In this document: positions 16,284 through 58,616 of the stretch, in pieces
How positions within the stretch are numbered: position 1 is the first letter of the stretch
Layout of the letters: each line of letters starts with the position of its first letter
Sequence record: MT446422.1
Reading direction: 5' to 3' (one strand)
Length of the DNA: 64,000 bases
Origin: Escherichia virus TH57
Position numbers and translations under genes: made by a program
Notes under the pieces: model-generated
Database searches by the model: none
What the model was told of the DNA's origin: nothing
The model's input: the letters and a program-made list of their open reading frames with translations, nothing else

Positions 16284-16543
16284 TATTCATCGTCCTCATC
16301 TTCATCTTCATCATCGTCGCCTTCGTCAGCGTCATCAGATTCTTTTTTGTCTTTCTTTTCTTCTTTGCCTTCGTCCTTGTTTTCATCTTCTTTAGGCTCT
16401 TCACCTTCAATCATGATGGAACGTGCAATTTCAATCTTACGTTCTTCAATCAAACTACCGCATACTGGGCCAATGTTTTCAGCAAAATATTTGCGAACGG
16501 CTACGAGGTCGTTTGATTTAATGGCTTCAAATAAATCATCCAT
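16283..16543 (-). CDS. 67: prohead core protein gp67
   Basis: 86 aa with poly-acidic tail ([11 protein letters not shown]); position as in T4. Confidence 0.7.
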
Positions 16544-18117
16544 TAGAAATCCTCTTCTTCTTCTTCAGGGTTTTGGAAACGAGCCTCTTTGGACTCCAAT
16601 TCAATTTGCTTAGCTTCTTGATTAATTTCTTCATCAGACATCTGGAGGAAATCCTTCATAGCCGTTTGATGCGAAATATATTTACCGATAAACGGTTCAG
16701 CCATCGTTAGCATATTGATTCTGCGTTCCATGATTTCTGCGTCTTTCATTTCGGTGAAATAGCTATCACGGTTGAACGTAACTTTAATATTATTTAGTTC
16801 CTTTTCCCATTCCTCTTCTGAAATAATTTTTTTCAGGATAAGGTTGGTTTTAAGTGGGTCGAGGAAAACTTCTTCAAATTTATTCTGTAGCTGCCTAATC
16901 CATTTAGAGAAATTCAATTCATCGCGAGTAATTGTCGCGCCCGCATCAAACATAACACCACTGTTTTGGTCATTAGGGATACGAGATAATGGAATTCGGA
17001 GAGCTTGATATAGGTTGTTCTTAAACCAACGAACATCGTCCATATCCGACATGCCTTGTGCACCCGGGAGAGTGTCAACTTCGGTGACAGCTTTACCATC
17101 ACGACGTTGCAACCAATAGTCTTCTGTCATTGACATGTTGTGCTGTTGGTTTTTGATTTTACCCGTGGTTGCATCATATACGACACGGTTTTTCATCGTG
17201 TTCATAATATGTTGCATATGCGCTGCTGCTTTACGAGACGGCATATTCCCAGTATCGATATAAAAGACTCGGCGGTCTGGAGCACGAGTTATACGATAAA
17301 TGACTAAAGCATCTTCTAATAGTTTTAATTGGTTTGCAGGTTTAATTGCTCGTTGTAAGTATCCGATGATATTCTTGCCACAGCAATCAAGTAATCCAGA
17401 ATGCGCATATACAATCGCCGCACGAGGAATTTTTATTTTAGTACCTGCTTCATATATACGACCATCGGCACAATAACTTTCATGGCCAGTATCGTATACA
17501 AAATATTCTCTGTAACCGTCGACAATTTTTGTACCATTTTCCATGCGTGTAACGATTTCACGGATGAACTGGATTTGTCTTGGGTCGAGGCGACGAAGTT
17601 CTTGAACTCCATCTTTAAGTTTTGCTGGGTTGATAATTTTGTGGAAGAAAATTCGAGAATCCACATACCAACGTTTAAAGTGGTCAGAACCTTTACGCTC
17701 GAAATTAAGAAGGTTATTAACTTCCGCGAATTCTTCAAGGATTCGGTCTTTAATTTTCTGACTAAATTCGGTAGCATCAAGATTAAGAGCTACAACATCT
17801 TTACCGTCTTCAAAAACGATAGCATCAGACACAATTTCTTGCACCGCGTTATCAACTTCATAATTATTTAGTAAGTTGCGGTAGGTGTCAATTAATTCCC
17901 TGGTATTTTTTACTTCAGGTTCATTACTCCCGAACATCTGTTGCATCAATGCATTATACGGGACGTTTTGTTCTTGTGACTCAATTTCGCGAGCCCCATC
18001 GTCAAACTTCGGCCCGGTCATTGACTCTAAATTATTTTTTTCTTGTTGCTTATATTCTTGTTCATCTTCTTTAGCCCAAGGCTTAAGAAAATTTAGTATT
18101 GTGTTAAAACCTGCCAT
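16543..18117 (-). CDS. 20: portal vertex protein gp20
   Basis: 524 aa, same length as T4 gp20; position upstream of 67/68/21. Confidence 0.9.
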
Positions 18118-18174: not shown

Positions 18175-18666
18175 TTATTCCCACCAGTCAATTGCGAACG
18201 TAGTTTCGAATGTCTCAATCTCATTATTCGAATCCCAATCCATCTGGACTTCACCAACGTTAGTTGGCCACATGCCGGTGATAACAACTTCTTTCGTAAC
18301 GGTCTTGCCATCACGATGGAACTGGCGAACAGTAGCGGTTTTCTTATAATCAGCAGGAGCTGCACCGGTAATTTCGTTGGTCATACCGTGACACATATTT
18401 TGCCAATCAACAATTGCTTGACGAACTTTATGGGCATCGTCGTTATAAATCGTAATAGTCCAGTCATCAAATGTACGGTCTCCCGCAACGTTGATTTTAC
18501 GGTTCATGTAACCAACTGGTACTTTTTCTACAATGCCTGCTGGCATCGGTGCAGCTTTGCAATGGAAAGCAAAGTTTTTACCCAGGAATGGGATTTCGAC
18601 TTCGAACAGGTTAGGGCGAGCAAAGTCACCGGATTCGAAAGCGCGTGTGATATCGGTCAACTCCAT
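18175..18666 (-). CDS. 19: tail tube protein gp19
   Basis: start at internal Met MELTDITRAF; 163 aa, same length as T4 gp19. Confidence 0.9.
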   Translation of the reverse strand: MELTDITRAFESGDFARPNLFEVEIPFLGKNFAFHCKAAPMPAGIVEKVPVGYMNRKINVAGDRTFDDWTITIYNDDAHKVRQAIVDWQNMCHGMTNEITGAAPADYKKTATVRQFHRDGKTVTKEVVITGMWPTNVGEVQMDWDSNNEIETFETTFAIDWWE

Positions 18667-18800
18667 TAAGGAATCCTCTTTATAGACACAGGTCGCACGT
18701 ACGCGTCCCTGGTGCATGTATTTATACTAGGTAATATGATTCATCAATAAATGTATTTAGGTCGCTGGGGGAGCTCTGAGGAGTCCGTAGAACCGATGAT

Positions 18801-18845
18801 ATGCTTTTATTTATAGCATTGTATAATGGTTCTACGGTTTACTGC
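18801..18845 (+). promoter_or_regulatory. MotA-box middle promoter-like cassette flanked by 10-bp inverted repeat; antisense to neighbouring genes
   Basis: TGCTTTT, 12-nt spacer, TATAAT (18822..18827), then GGTTCTACGG; CCGTAGAACC at 18786..18795 is its inverted partner; minus-strand TATAAATA at 18808..18815 overlaps. Confidence 0.4.
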
Positions 18846-18861
18846 TTAATTACATTTACTG

Positions 18862-19467
18862 TCAGGATAATATATCCCATAAGTCAATACTATTTGATTT
18901 TCCTTTGGACCTATTAGATTCCCAAGTGACTATTTCTAAATTGTTGAGCGAAGCGATAACAGTCTCTGGTATATGATTATAAAATCCATACGCAATAGAA
19001 ACTTTATGGTCAAGTTGGTATGCACCTTCTTCCCCACATTTTCCTATCTTATCTGCATTTTCCCATGTTGACCAAATATTCTTTAGATGTTTTGCTCTTG
19101 TCAATGCATGAACACGTTGAGCGTACAAATAGAATTCACGCTTATTGCCTTTCCAGCTATGATGTTTTTCACCACGTTGCCATGGTCTTGGCACACCGCC
19201 TTGTGCAATAACATTCTTTTGTCCAATATCTTTTCTTGAACACGCCTTACATAAATGTTTATCAACGCGACGAAGCAACTGAATCCCTCGCTCAAAATGT
19301 ATCCCACATTCATCACAGGAACACTCAATCTTTTTATTACTATTATCTGGCATTTGTTCAACTGGAACAGAAATCACATCATGGTATGTTAGAGGTTTAC
19401 CTAAGTATTCGCTCCACCACTTTGCATGATTTCGTATTTGAACTTCAACAAATTTAGAAATAATCAC
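18862..19467 (-). CDS. free-standing HNH homing endonuclease
   Basis: 201 aa; CxxC...CxxC zinc finger plus HNH core (QLDHKVSIAYGF ... NNLEIVTWESNRSKG); inserted between genes 18 and 19 where T4 has no gene. Confidence 0.75.
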   Translation of the reverse strand: MIISKFVEVQIRNHAKWWSEYLGKPLTYHDVISVPVEQMPDNSNKKIECSCDECGIHFERGIQLLRRVDKHLCKACSRKDIGQKNVIAQGGVPRPWQRGEKHHSWKGNKREFYLYAQRVHALTRAKHLKNIWSTWENADKIGKCGEEGAYQLDHKVSIAYGFYNHIPETVIASLNNLEIVTWESNRSKGKSNSIDLWDILS

Positions 19468-19484
19468 TTGTAAATCCTTGCGCG

Positions 19485-19492
19485 TATTTATA
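19485..19492 (-). promoter_or_regulatory. late promoter box TATAAATA embedded in an 8-bp-stem hairpin (HNH gene)
   Basis: GCGCGTAT-ttatatc-ATACGCGC palindrome 19480..19502 contains TATAAATA on minus strand about 20 nt upstream of HNH start. Confidence 0.5.
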
Positions 19493-19534
19493 TCATACGC
19501 GCATTATAACCCAAGTTAAATCAGAAGTAAAGTC

Positions 19535-21514
19535 TTATTGCACCCCAATCAGCTCATCAAAATCTGCACCAGTGCTAGTGGCTACGAAATTAAGCTGTAT
19601 ATAGTTAATACTGCGAGCGGGTTTATAATAAATGCTAGCAACAAACTCATTTCGGTCAATAACCGATGGGGTGTTGTTAGTAGTATCACAAACCACACGA
19701 CCTTCATAAATGCCACCGAGTGCACGAATACCATCCAAGTATTGAGAAGTTTCCATACGGAATGATGCACGAGTGAAGTTATCGTTAAGCTCAAACAGTT
19801 TATATTTGGATGCGTCACCGATATTTTTCTTCAGCATATTCGTAAGACGACGAACGTTAATATGGTCCATCGGAGATGGAACTTTAGTTGCAGTCTTATC
19901 ACCGTACAGAACAAAACCATCGCCACCTGCGAAACCAACAACCGGGTTGATAGCTTCCTGATACATACGGTCACGTTGGGTCTGACGTGGTTCGATTGCC
20001 AATTTCAGAACGTTCAGAATCTGACCACGGTTATAACCGGCTGGAGACATCCAAGGCTGAGAAATATCATCAGTACGAGCACACAGACCAGCCATATCAG
20101 CTGCCAGAGGAACCCAACGGTTCACGTCGTTATATTTATCATACTGATATTTATAGTTGCCATCAATGGCAGCATAAGTCGTGCTGATATTCATGTTATC
20201 AGTATCGAATGCACCGCTACCTGTACGCCAATCAATCAGGTTATCCACTGCACGGGTCAGAGGAACATTAACCAACAGGCCTTTCGGCGGGGAGATAAAT
20301 GCCAGGCAATCCTGACGTTCGTCAGCGATAGAAACTACGTGCTTCTGAACAGTGGAAGCAGTCGCATCACCTTCACCAGCTACTGCGCCAGCGATAAGCA
20401 GGTTAATATGCAGTGCTTCACGGTCAGCAAACAGGTCCCAACCTTGCATCAAATCACCAGCAGTAACCTGGTCGTTTGCAGAAATACCGCCCATCAGATT
20501 GATGATGCCTGCAAAGCCTTTTGGCCAGTTCAGAGAAGTCGCATAGATGTAATTGGAAGTACCTTTTGCAAAGTAGTCGTCCAGATAAATGTTGTTGCCG
20601 TAAACGTCTTTATCGCCTTCTTTAGTTGACAGAACAACGTTTTCAACGATAGCACCATCACGACGAACGATGATTGCATACTGGTCGTCAGACTGTGGTC
20701 CGTAGTTAAACACCGCACGAGCTACAGAAGCACGGGAACCGCCGCCTGGATAAATATCCAGCATCTTCGAAGCGCCAGCATCATAAGCAGCTTTGGAAAC
20801 GATTTCAACTTCGAGAGTCGAGCCGATTTCACCAGGATAAAGAGCAACAACACCTGGCATTGCATATTTCTGTAGGGAAGCCTGGAATTCCAGAGAGGTA
20901 ATAGCTTCTTCACTATTTTCCGCTTCGGTCAACAGGATACCAGAATCGGTAACAATTTTCCCGAGGGTAATCGTACCAGACACACCTGAAGAAGTGGTTA
21001 GGATTTCAGCAGTCCAAGCCGGGCCTAAAGCAGGATACTGGTTTACAGATTTTGCAAAGGCAATAATTTTGTCAGACGGAATGAAGACCGCAAGGATTTT
21101 CCCGTCAACGTCAACCTTGGTGATACGGCCAGCAGTTTCAACAACAGTCTGGTTGTGTTTAACCTGGATAACGTCACCGACTGCATAGTTAGAACCTGCA
21201 GTAGCGATTGTACTTTCGATGTTCCCTGCTACCGGGGATGCGTTTTTAGCAAATTCACGGTTAACAACACGAACGGTGCGCAGGTCATTACCATATTGAA
21301 GGAAATTCATTCCACTCATAAAGTAGTCAGCCGTAATATTGTTCGGGCCACCAAACAAATCGACAAGTTCCACTTCGTTTGTAATTTGAGTTACCTGGAA
21401 AGCTGGGCCCCACTGGAATTTACCAACCAGCGCCGCACGACCCGTCGCGTTACGAACAACAGTGCTTTGGACCGTTGTTTCTTTGAGCTCAATGCCCGGG
21501 GATAATAAAGCCAT
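19535..21514 (-). CDS. 18: tail sheath protein gp18
   Basis: 659 aa, identical length to T4 gp18; N-terminus MALLSPGIELKETTVQS. Confidence 0.95.
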   Translation of the reverse strand: MALLSPGIELKETTVQSTVVRNATGRAALVGKFQWGPAFQVTQITNEVELVDLFGGPNNITADYFMSGMNFLQYGNDLRTVRVVNREFAKNASPVAGNIESTIATAGSNYAVGDVIQVKHNQTVVETAGRITKVDVDGKILAVFIPSDKIIAFAKSVNQYPALGPAWTAEILTTSSGVSGTITLGKIVTDSGILLTEAENSEEAITSLEFQASLQKYAMPGVVALYPGEIGSTLEVEIVSKAAYDAGASKMLDIYPGGGSRASVARAVFNYGPQSDDQYAIIVRRDGAIVENVVLSTKEGDKDVYGNNIYLDDYFAKGTSNYIYATSLNWPKGFAGIINLMGGISANDQVTAGDLMQGWDLFADREALHINLLIAGAVAGEGDATASTVQKHVVSIADERQDCLAFISPPKGLLVNVPLTRAVDNLIDWRTGSGAFDTDNMNISTTYAAIDGNYKYQYDKYNDVNRWVPLAADMAGLCARTDDISQPWMSPAGYNRGQILNVLKLAIEPRQTQRDRMYQEAINPVVGFAGGDGFVLYGDKTATKVPSPMDHINVRRLTNMLKKNIGDASKYKLFELNDNFTRASFRMETSQYLDGIRALGGIYEGRVVCDTTNNTPSVIDRNEFVASIYYKPARSINYIQLNFVATSTGADFDELIGVQ

Positions 21515-21543: not shown

Positions 21544-23850
<2,307 letters not shown>

Positions 23851-58560: not shown

Positions 58561-58616
58561 GTTTACATCTCCAAATGATAGGGTTATAATGACCCTATCA
58601 ACTACGGAGAACAAAC

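Follow-up and report, generated by a model that had tools for sequence, protein, structure and literature searches.

Intronless homing has been described for the T4 endonucleases SegF, SegG and MobE (PMC2993671, PMC2988022). Control by a promoter embedded in a hairpin is on record for I-TevI, I-TevII, I-TevIII, segB and the mobE gene of phage Aeh1, a hairpin abuts the ribosome-binding site (RBS) of seg43(25) in Aeromonas phage 25, and the endonuclease genes of T4 are described as being expressed from middle or late promoters, with no early promoters among them (PMC2988022). Phage T6 is listed with three mob-like genes (PMC2993671). Besides, ICP1-like phages possess the IPA-HNH genes, whose products combine an N-terminal HNH with a C-terminal AP2 domain and which are said not to occur in T4 (Barth, Dunham and Seed 2023; PMC10055350). 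Here, we report on a stretch of 64,000 nt from Escherichia virus TH57 (record MT446422.1; hereafter the window, to whose positions all coordinates refer), in which an open reading frame (ORF) of 201 amino acids (aa) occupies the junction between gene 18, encoding the tail sheath protein gp18, and gene 19, encoding the tail tube protein gp19. A preliminary description had interpreted this ORF as a free-standing HNH-type homing endonuclease cassette between essential tail genes. The core of that reading is supported by the existence of insert-free relatives and by precise insert boundaries, and on sequence grounds we consider the ORF a probable homing endonuclease gene of the free-standing kind, from an HNH-type family that is uncurated (T6 ORF19.1 / PHROG 5104).

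The inserted gene and its protein family

Escherichia phage vB_EcoM_VR7 (Gaprivervirus) matches the region with 97.7% identity over 1.8 kb, and phages RZ and DK-13 do so with ~96%; because of these identities the window can be assigned to a VR7-like T4-type phage of this genus. The ORF itself is 99.5% identical to VR7 gp19.1, which is annotated as 'gp19.1 hypothetical protein, similar to T6 gp19.1', and 59% identical over its full length to T6 ORF19.1, a sequence deposited in 1994 and located between genes 18 and 19. Both proteins share with the window ORF its length, the GTG start, the MIISK N-terminus, a Cys4 zinc finger and a DH...N...N core; they represent the same family, with no difference in kind. 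By sequence comparison, the window ORF is thus a homologue of T6 ORF19.1 and VR7 gp19.1 within PHROG 5104 (E = 6e-77), a family labeled 'unknown function', whose members in T6 and VR7 are all annotated as hypothetical. Weak additional PHROG matches point to the 'endonuclease VII' and 'homing endonuclease' families.

The translation and the Pfam matches of the flanking genes bore out the zinc finger, the HNH core and the junction as the place of the ORF, with C51xxC54...C73xxC76 and YQLDHK...NNLEIVTWESNRSKG both present. When 112 relatives (24-46% identical to the query) were aligned, D153, H154, N176 and N185 were the only invariant columns, and C51, C54, C73, C76, L177 and K188 were nearly invariant. 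This pattern reads as an HNH motif of the DH...N...N type, accompanied by a Cys4 zinc finger, and a loss of the catalytic residues was not seen in these relatives. An AlphaFold model (mean pLDDT 83.7) placed the DH pair at the end of a strand (150-154), N176 before a second strand (177-181) and N185 on a helix (182-188), i.e. in a predicted beta-beta-alpha arrangement. The best structural matches were small solved HNH nucleases (Gme HNH 4h9d, GVE2 HNH 5h0o, Cas9 HNH domains and McrA), with which the window ORF would have in common its predicted beta-beta-alpha-metal core, the DH general-base pair and the helix Asn. The five top Foldseek hits in the PDB were weak matches to Cas9 HNH domains (E = 0.17-0.75), and hhalign against the SpCas9 HNH domain, for which an approximate sequence was used, weakly aligned DH with DH and NR.K with NR.K (P = 0.004, probability 8%), N185-R186 falling on the NR of Cas9. 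A structure search of BFVD returned mainly uncharacterised homologues and a few proteins named HNH or homing endonuclease. Because of the motif, the predicted fold and these weak structural matches, we regard the ORF as very probably encoding an HNH-type nuclease of a family absent from curated models.

The same alignment bears on whether the gene might be an inactive relic, that is, a decayed nuclease whose ORF is kept for regulatory signals of its neighbours embedded in the cassette. Such decay would fit the failure of Pfam to recognise the ORF as HNH and an Asn, not His, as second metal ligand, and in T4 promoters for essential genes do lie inside some endonuclease genes, favouring their retention (PMC2988022). 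On the other hand, at least 80% of the ORF is retained in 219 of the 235 phage records in which tblastn (E ≤ 1e-5) detected it (236 places, one per genome), the invariance of the four catalytic positions indicates purifying selection on the active site, and gp19 has copies of the T4 late-promoter consensus, TATAAATA, of its own outside the cassette. Moreover, the H-N-N variant occurs in active HNH enzymes such as Cas9. We therefore judge a relic to be very improbable.

The family turned out to be large. While a word-indexed search retrieved only 22 clusters, an exhaustive profile search yielded 3,882 cluster representatives at E ≤ 0.001 and 771 at E ≤ 1e-10. Given that Pfam and NCBIfam HNH models miss it, surveys of phage homing endonucleases will undercount such genes. 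A Pfam scan of ten distant relatives gave DUF7487 as the sole match, in five of the ten (P0104, P0119, P0139, P0155 and P0164), where it is joined to the same C-terminal nuclease domain, and no match to an HNH model among the ten; DUF7487 might be a further module by which homing endonucleases bind DNA. Annotations of the family vary: in Salmonella phage S16 (L008 1501-2121) only the last 107 codons are called (gp100.1) and in RB9 (L007 1501-2118) nothing is, although a full-length ORF with GTG start is intact in both, and homologues in other records are labeled 'head morphogenesis protein' or 'type II restriction endonuclease'.

Insertion polymorphism, locus fidelity and mosaic alleles

The sheath/tube junction is polymorphic for the gene. 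The window allele is carried by VR7, RZ and DK-13 only, whereas most of the records ranked next after the carriers, among them VR25, VR20, SP18, UPEC01 and the TH phages, have an insert-free junction with ~664 bp fewer (megablast spans of 1801 bp in carriers versus ~1137 bp, or 62% of the query). The comparison with insert-free relatives that had been proposed earlier defined the boundaries: aligned to VR25, the insert extends from the first base after the gp18 stop to the last ORF codons (Table 1), its 3' boundary being ambiguous by a few nt within ATTATC (18866-18871). Likewise, relative to T4, T6 has ~640 bp inserted directly after the gp18 TAA, with 8 nt replaced and identical DNA downstream, so that in Gaprivervirus and Tequatrovirus alike the gp18 stop codon is immediately followed by the insert. 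As the preliminary description had stated, T4 has no gene at this junction; nor has T2 (365 bp in both, versus 1001 bp in T6). Among 655 Tequatrovirus-type records, the T6 allele is found in 70 and a different nuclease allele in some (RB9, RB10, pSs-1), and the others sampled, including T4 and T2, mostly have an empty site. We further surveyed 79 diverse T4-like loci from IMG/VR, in 77 of which gp18 could be placed. The gap between sheath and tube genes is bimodal: a family member lies within a gap of 648-893 nt in 8/77, the site is empty, with a gap of 24-204 nt, in 68/77, and one locus is not comparable. The gene is hence not shared by all relatives at this position, as the empty sites in VR25, VR20, SP18, T4, T2 and these 68 loci demonstrate.

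Where it is present, the gene keeps to its place. The family members that we examined are all located between the sheath and tube genes, namely in 16 annotated phages of at least ten genera (VR7, RZ, DK-13, VR26, PSD9, T6, RB9, S16, Eco005, Acj61 of Acinetobacter, phiM7 of Sinorhizobium, Nispero of Klebsiella, X20 of Serratia, VmeM-32 of Vibrio, Ci1 of Citrobacter and Thanatos-2 of Shewanella) as well as in at least ten metagenomic contigs, and none was found elsewhere in the surveyed IMG/VR loci. A single place per genome and a single locus are typical of a homing endonuclease lineage bound to one conserved target, and this fidelity, along with the majority of empty sites, argues against simple vertical descent.

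Several relatives have a second endonuclease-like ORF of 190-198 aa between gp19 and gp20 (L019 1908-2480, L022 1615-2211, L023 1332-1928, L015 2447-3028 and L027 2468 onward), one with a faint NUMOD3 match and one annotated 'HNH endonuclease'; the gp19/gp20 junction of the window measures 57 nt only. The sheath-tube-portal block thus appears to be a hot spot for endonuclease-like genes.

The relationships of the nucleases, as far as pairwise identities tell, are in strong disagreement with those of the host genes. Tube proteins are 100% identical between the window and VR26 as well as between PSD9 and Eco005, and 99% identical between T6 and RB9, yet the corresponding nucleases share 30%, 37% and 53% identity; between the window and T6, in turn, the tube proteins are 71% and the nucleases 59% identical. 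These figures are relevant for the view that we are dealing with an old resident accessory gene, e.g. one whose DNA-binding or nuclease product assists morphogenesis or packaging, that descended vertically and was subject to repeated loss and to ordinary recombination independent of its own nuclease activity. In principle, this might account for the occurrence of the gene at one locus in very distant phages, namely as an old gene with many losses and allelic exchange. However, the empty state, with its spacer of 24-204 nt in diverse lineages, is common and probably ancestral, phages with fully identical tube proteins have nucleases only 30-37% identical or none at all, and the cassette is better conserved than its own flanks. 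Besides, T4 and T2 manage in its absence, the gene is not adjacent to the terminase gene, and T4-type headful packaging has no need for a cos-cutting HNH. Residency by descent is therefore quite unlikely.

That the cassette moves independently of its surroundings is also suggested by its immediate neighbourhood. Between window and VR7, identity amounts to 99.8% for the ORF and 100% for the leader, but to only 80% for the last 100 nt of gp18 (19535-19634), where VR7, together with VR26, differs from the window at 20/100 nt and one amino acid. The gp18 ends of VR7 and VR26 have a dense synonymous recoding in common (including Arg CGC to AGG and Ser AGT to TCG), which may be the footprint of selection against a nuclease site or an import from a distant donor. 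The same cassette on different gp18 3' ends is therefore the footprint expected from copying into new genomes. Downstream of the ORF, ~135 nt of the carriers represent an allele distinct from that of insert-free phages. Within it, a 35-nt patch shows ~35% identity between carriers and insert-free phages, despite near-identical DNA on its flanks, and is 98-100% identical among the four insert-carrying Gapriverviruses. The patch probably travels with the cassette, and it is a candidate for a co-converted or immunity segment, which might mark a possible target position in insert-free genomes.

The nucleases fall into subtypes of ~201 aa (window, T6), ~206 aa (PSD9, RB9, S16, Nispero) and 227 aa (VR26, Eco005, X20), the last of which adjoins the gp19 start instead of the gp18 stop. 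T6 and RB9 agree in the leader and at both ends of the gene (the first ~45 and the last ~250 nt, the latter being the HNH domain) and differ in the N-terminal and zinc-finger region, while P0007 joins a PSD9-like N-terminus to a C-terminus nearly identical to that of the window ORF. This mosaicism of nuclease alleles suggests swapping of the recognition module. A conserved nuclease domain behind a variable, mosaic N-terminal region, as under diversifying pressure on target specificity, would also suit a competition or defence nuclease that cuts the DNA of co-infecting relatives, host or satellites and brings about marker exclusion or degradation without efficient copying of its own gene; the invariant catalytic motif agrees with this, and a possible early-type promoter (see below) would suit an early attack on a competitor. 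Yet the strict insertion site and the precise boundaries are of the kind that gene conversion at a cut site brings about, and the presence of the cassette on different gp18 3'-end haplotypes is a footprint of copying into new genomes. In T4, moreover, exclusion and homing are two outcomes of one cut (PMC2993671). A role confined to competition hence seems unlikely to us, and a homing endonuclease remains the reading that we prefer.

The cassette leader and the native intergenic region

The genes of the sheath/tube region all lie on the minus strand, and the coordinates of their features are compiled in Table 1. For gp19, the mechanical ORF list adds 17 codons up to an ATG at 18717 (extension 18667-18717) that directly abuts a TATAAATA box (18719-18726); this longer version is probably spurious because in relatives the second Met (18666), with a good AAGAGGA Shine-Dalgarno (SD) sequence ahead of it, is taken as the start.

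Table 1. Positions of genes and sequence elements around the sheath/tube junction of the window
Feature	Position	Strand	Remarks
gp17 terminase	21547-23379	(-)	
gp18 tail sheath	19535-21514	(-)	Five Pfam tail-sheath domains; annotated as gp18 in VR7, RZ and DK-13
gp18 stop codon, 5' boundary of insert	19535-19537	(-)	
Inserted cassette, ~663 bp (5' untranslated region and almost entire ORF)	18872-19534	(-)	From alignment to insert-free VR25
Sigma-70 / T4-early-like promoter candidate	19503-19531	(-)	-35 TTTACT 19526-19531; 17-nt spacer; -10 TATAAT 19503-19508
Cassette stem-loop, 9-bp stem TGCGCGTAT/ATACGCGCA, 7-nt loop	19479-19503	(-)	Arms 19479-19487 / 19495-19503
TATAAATA (T4 late-promoter consensus) in loop and 3' arm of upstream hairpin	19485-19492	(-)	17 nt upstream of GTG
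Putative nuclease ORF, 201 aa	18862-19467	(-)	GTG start; AAGGA 7 nt upstream
Cys4 zinc finger, residues 51-76	19240-19317	(-)	C51xxC54...C73xxC76
HNH-like core, residues 150-188	18904-19020	(-)	D153, H154, N176, N185
Native sheath/tube intergenic region	18667-18861	(-)	Homologous to 202-bp spacer of insert-free VR25
10-bp inverted repeat CCGTAGAACC/GGTTCTACGG, 33 nt apart	18785-18794 / 18828-18837		In native intergenic region
TATAAATA inside 10-bp inverted repeat	18808-18815	(-)	
Diverged 35-nt patch	18744-18779	(-)	From comparison of carriers with insert-free phages
Second intergenic TATAAATA, ahead of gp19	18719-18726	(-)	
gp19 tail tube	18175-18666	(-)	Pfam PF06841 (Phage_T4_gp19); start preceded by AAGAGGA; annotated in VR7, VR25 and VR26
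gp20 portal	16543-18117	(-)	

Exactly two inverted repeats are found in 18600-19600 (19479-19503 and 18785-18837), and both contain TATAAATA, a motif that occurs 19 times in the window, where chance would yield 5.4 copies; the minus strand holds 15 of the 19, and most precede late genes at a short distance. Only the upstream one belongs to the cassette. The downstream 10-bp inverted repeat, previously taken as a signature of the cassette, did not hold up as such: both arms and the box recur in the 202-bp spacer of insert-free VR25 and VR20, and since the element is present there without the gene, we regard it as native to the sheath/tube intergenic region. T4, too, has a hairpin and then TATAAATA after gene 18.

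The cassette-borne hairpin reaches from the last base of the -10 box to the first base of the SD and folds with z = -3.2 in its 101-nt context. The preliminary description had placed a late promoter for the ORF in this palindrome. Box and hairpin are indeed present, the stem comprising 9 instead of the 8 bp claimed, but TATAAATA in the loop is confined to the VR7 group (VR7, RZ, DK-13) and missing from the cassettes of PSD9, L020, L025, L027, L019 and Nispero, in which the hairpin is kept, as is a TTTAC(A/T)-N17-TATAAT pair directly upstream. These six share one leader layout with the window, consisting of (G)TTTAC(A/T), 17 nt, TATAAT, a stem-loop that begins where the -10 box ends, and then AAGGA and GTG, with TTGTAC-N18-TACAAT as the promoter-like pair of Nispero. 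Across eight cassette variants, the invariant columns mostly coincide with the two hexamers, the stem base, the SD and the start region, and spacer and loop are variable. The stem covaries: GCGCGTA/TACGCGC is replaced by GCACGTA/TACGTGC in L027 and by GCACATA/TATGTGC in Nispero. L019 has a different, longer stem of 14 bp with three G-U pairs, which favours an RNA structure over a DNA operator. A different leader, in which the gp18 stop precedes a short GC hairpin with a T-run and then the SD, is found in T6, S16, L022, Ci1, phiM7, Thanatos-2 and 92A1; T6 ORF19.1 thus differs from its window homologue in lacking the promoter-plus-hairpin leader.

The promoter candidate TTTACT-N17-TATAAT matches the sigma-70 consensus at 10/12 positions, and TTTAC-N18-TATAAT occurs twice in the window versus 0.09 times expected. 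The other exact copy, at 58562-58590 (+), likewise ends in GGGTTATAAT, lies among small plus-strand ORFs and is probably a genuine early promoter of the phage, against which the candidate in the cassette can usefully be compared. An early-type start ~7 nt past the -10 box (near 19496) and a late-box start ~6 nt past the box (near 19479) would both give transcripts devoid of the 5' arm of the hairpin, so that it would form solely in read-through RNA from gp18, a highly expressed gene whose late transcripts are abundant. In line with this, the predicted accessibility of SD and start was 0.48-0.66 in promoter-initiated RNA versus 0.30-0.47 in read-through RNA in 7/7 variants. Two further roles were considered for the hairpin: sequestration of the RBS as a strong translational switch was rejected, as the stem ends at the SD and the differences in accessibility are modest, and a consensus scan for intrinsic terminators did not call it. 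Since promoter-started transcripts would lack the hairpin and gp18 read-through would contain it, the structure most likely acts as an insulator, providing the gp18 mRNA with a 3' hairpin that substitutes for the displaced native one, and mildly damping nuclease translation. The leader, with its conserved promoter-like pair and covarying hairpin, offers a testable example of how a selfish gene may be insulated from a highly expressed late structural gene.

Proposed homing cycle and comparison with known systems

In the mechanism that we propose, the N-terminal Cys4 zinc-finger module would bind DNA and recognise a site in insert-free genomes, located at the sheath/tube junction or close to it, and the C-terminal beta-beta-alpha-metal domain, with D153-H154, N176 and N185 as catalytic residues, would cut or nick there. 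During mixed infection, cleavage of this junction in a co-infecting relative devoid of the gene would be repaired from the carrier genome, whereby the 663-bp cassette and variable flanks would be copied in directly after the gp18 stop codon; carriers would be immune through a split or recoded site. The cassette would supply its own 5' region, composed of a sigma-70/T4-early-like promoter, the stem-loop, an SD and a weak GTG start consistent with low expression, and in the VR7 lineage also a late box.

In addition to the shared locus in distant phages, a number of points weigh against the interpretation as a homing endonuclease. Our literature search found no experimental or functional study of T6 ORF19.1 or the PHROG 5104 family. 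The search for an HNH family, as suggested in the preliminary description, did return the weak PHROG endonuclease matches, but no Pfam family matched the window ORF at E values up to 10, nor did any NCBIfam HNH model, and sequence-profile searches of the PDB (with 23- and 112-sequence alignments) gave no HNH, only treble-clef or C2H2-like zinc fingers. A cleavage site could not be read from nucleotide differences between carriers and non-carriers, as differences at the junction do not sort cleanly by the insert; the last gp18 codons and the VR7/VR26 recoded block show no sorting by gene presence. Finally, promoter pair and late box are consensus matches, and the hairpin stops at the SD without covering it, with a modest predicted change in accessibility.

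A more far-reaching proposal would be that the T4-like branch of this large uncurated HNH family (3,882 representatives at the threshold given above) has specialised on the sheath/tube junction, from phages of Enterobacteria to those of Sinorhizobium, as a self-contained unit that has an early-type promoter and a covarying insulator hairpin, is expressed early, unlike the T4 endonuclease genes, and swaps its N-terminal recognition module; we offer this tentatively, as a possibility that is more doubtful than not. For the most part, the cassette is routine selfish DNA of a T4-like phage and an ordinary type of element, whose study corrects many database annotations. As it keeps strictly to a single junction even in phages that are very distant from each other, it is a clean system in which to investigate target tracking and the swapping of recognition domains.

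Among the known systems, the T-even HNH endonucleases MobA-E and I-TevIII resemble the window cassette in that a small nuclease gene lies between or within essential genes, in the orientation of its neighbours, with a patchy distribution and control by hairpin and promoter (PMC2988022, PMC2993671). There is, however, no detectable sequence similarity between them and the window ORF, the target locus differs, being the sheath/tube junction here, and the window ORF has its zinc finger in the N-terminal and its nuclease domain in the C-terminal part. Homology to mob genes was not observed either, the tblastn search having yielded one place per genome even in T6. The IPA-HNH genes, too, are atypical HNH homing endonuclease genes that adjoin essential phage genes and undergo domain shuffling (PMC10055350), but membership of the window ORF in this group was rejected on account of its reverse domain order and the lack of an AP2 domain. 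The copying of the cassette that we propose can be likened to the intronless homing of SegF, SegG and MobE. With regard to the leader, I-TevI, I-TevII, I-TevIII, segB and Aeh1 mobE equally have a stable hairpin just upstream of the start and promoter transcripts without its 5' arm, and the stem of seg43(25), like that in the window, stops at the RBS and leaves it uncovered. Unlike the T4 endonuclease leaders, the conserved promoter candidate here resembles the sigma-70/early type, not middle or late, the late box is lineage-specific and the predicted effect on translation is modest. By analogy, the putative insulating hairpin would be similar in its logic to those of I-TevI, segB and mobE, and in its geometry to that of seg43(25).

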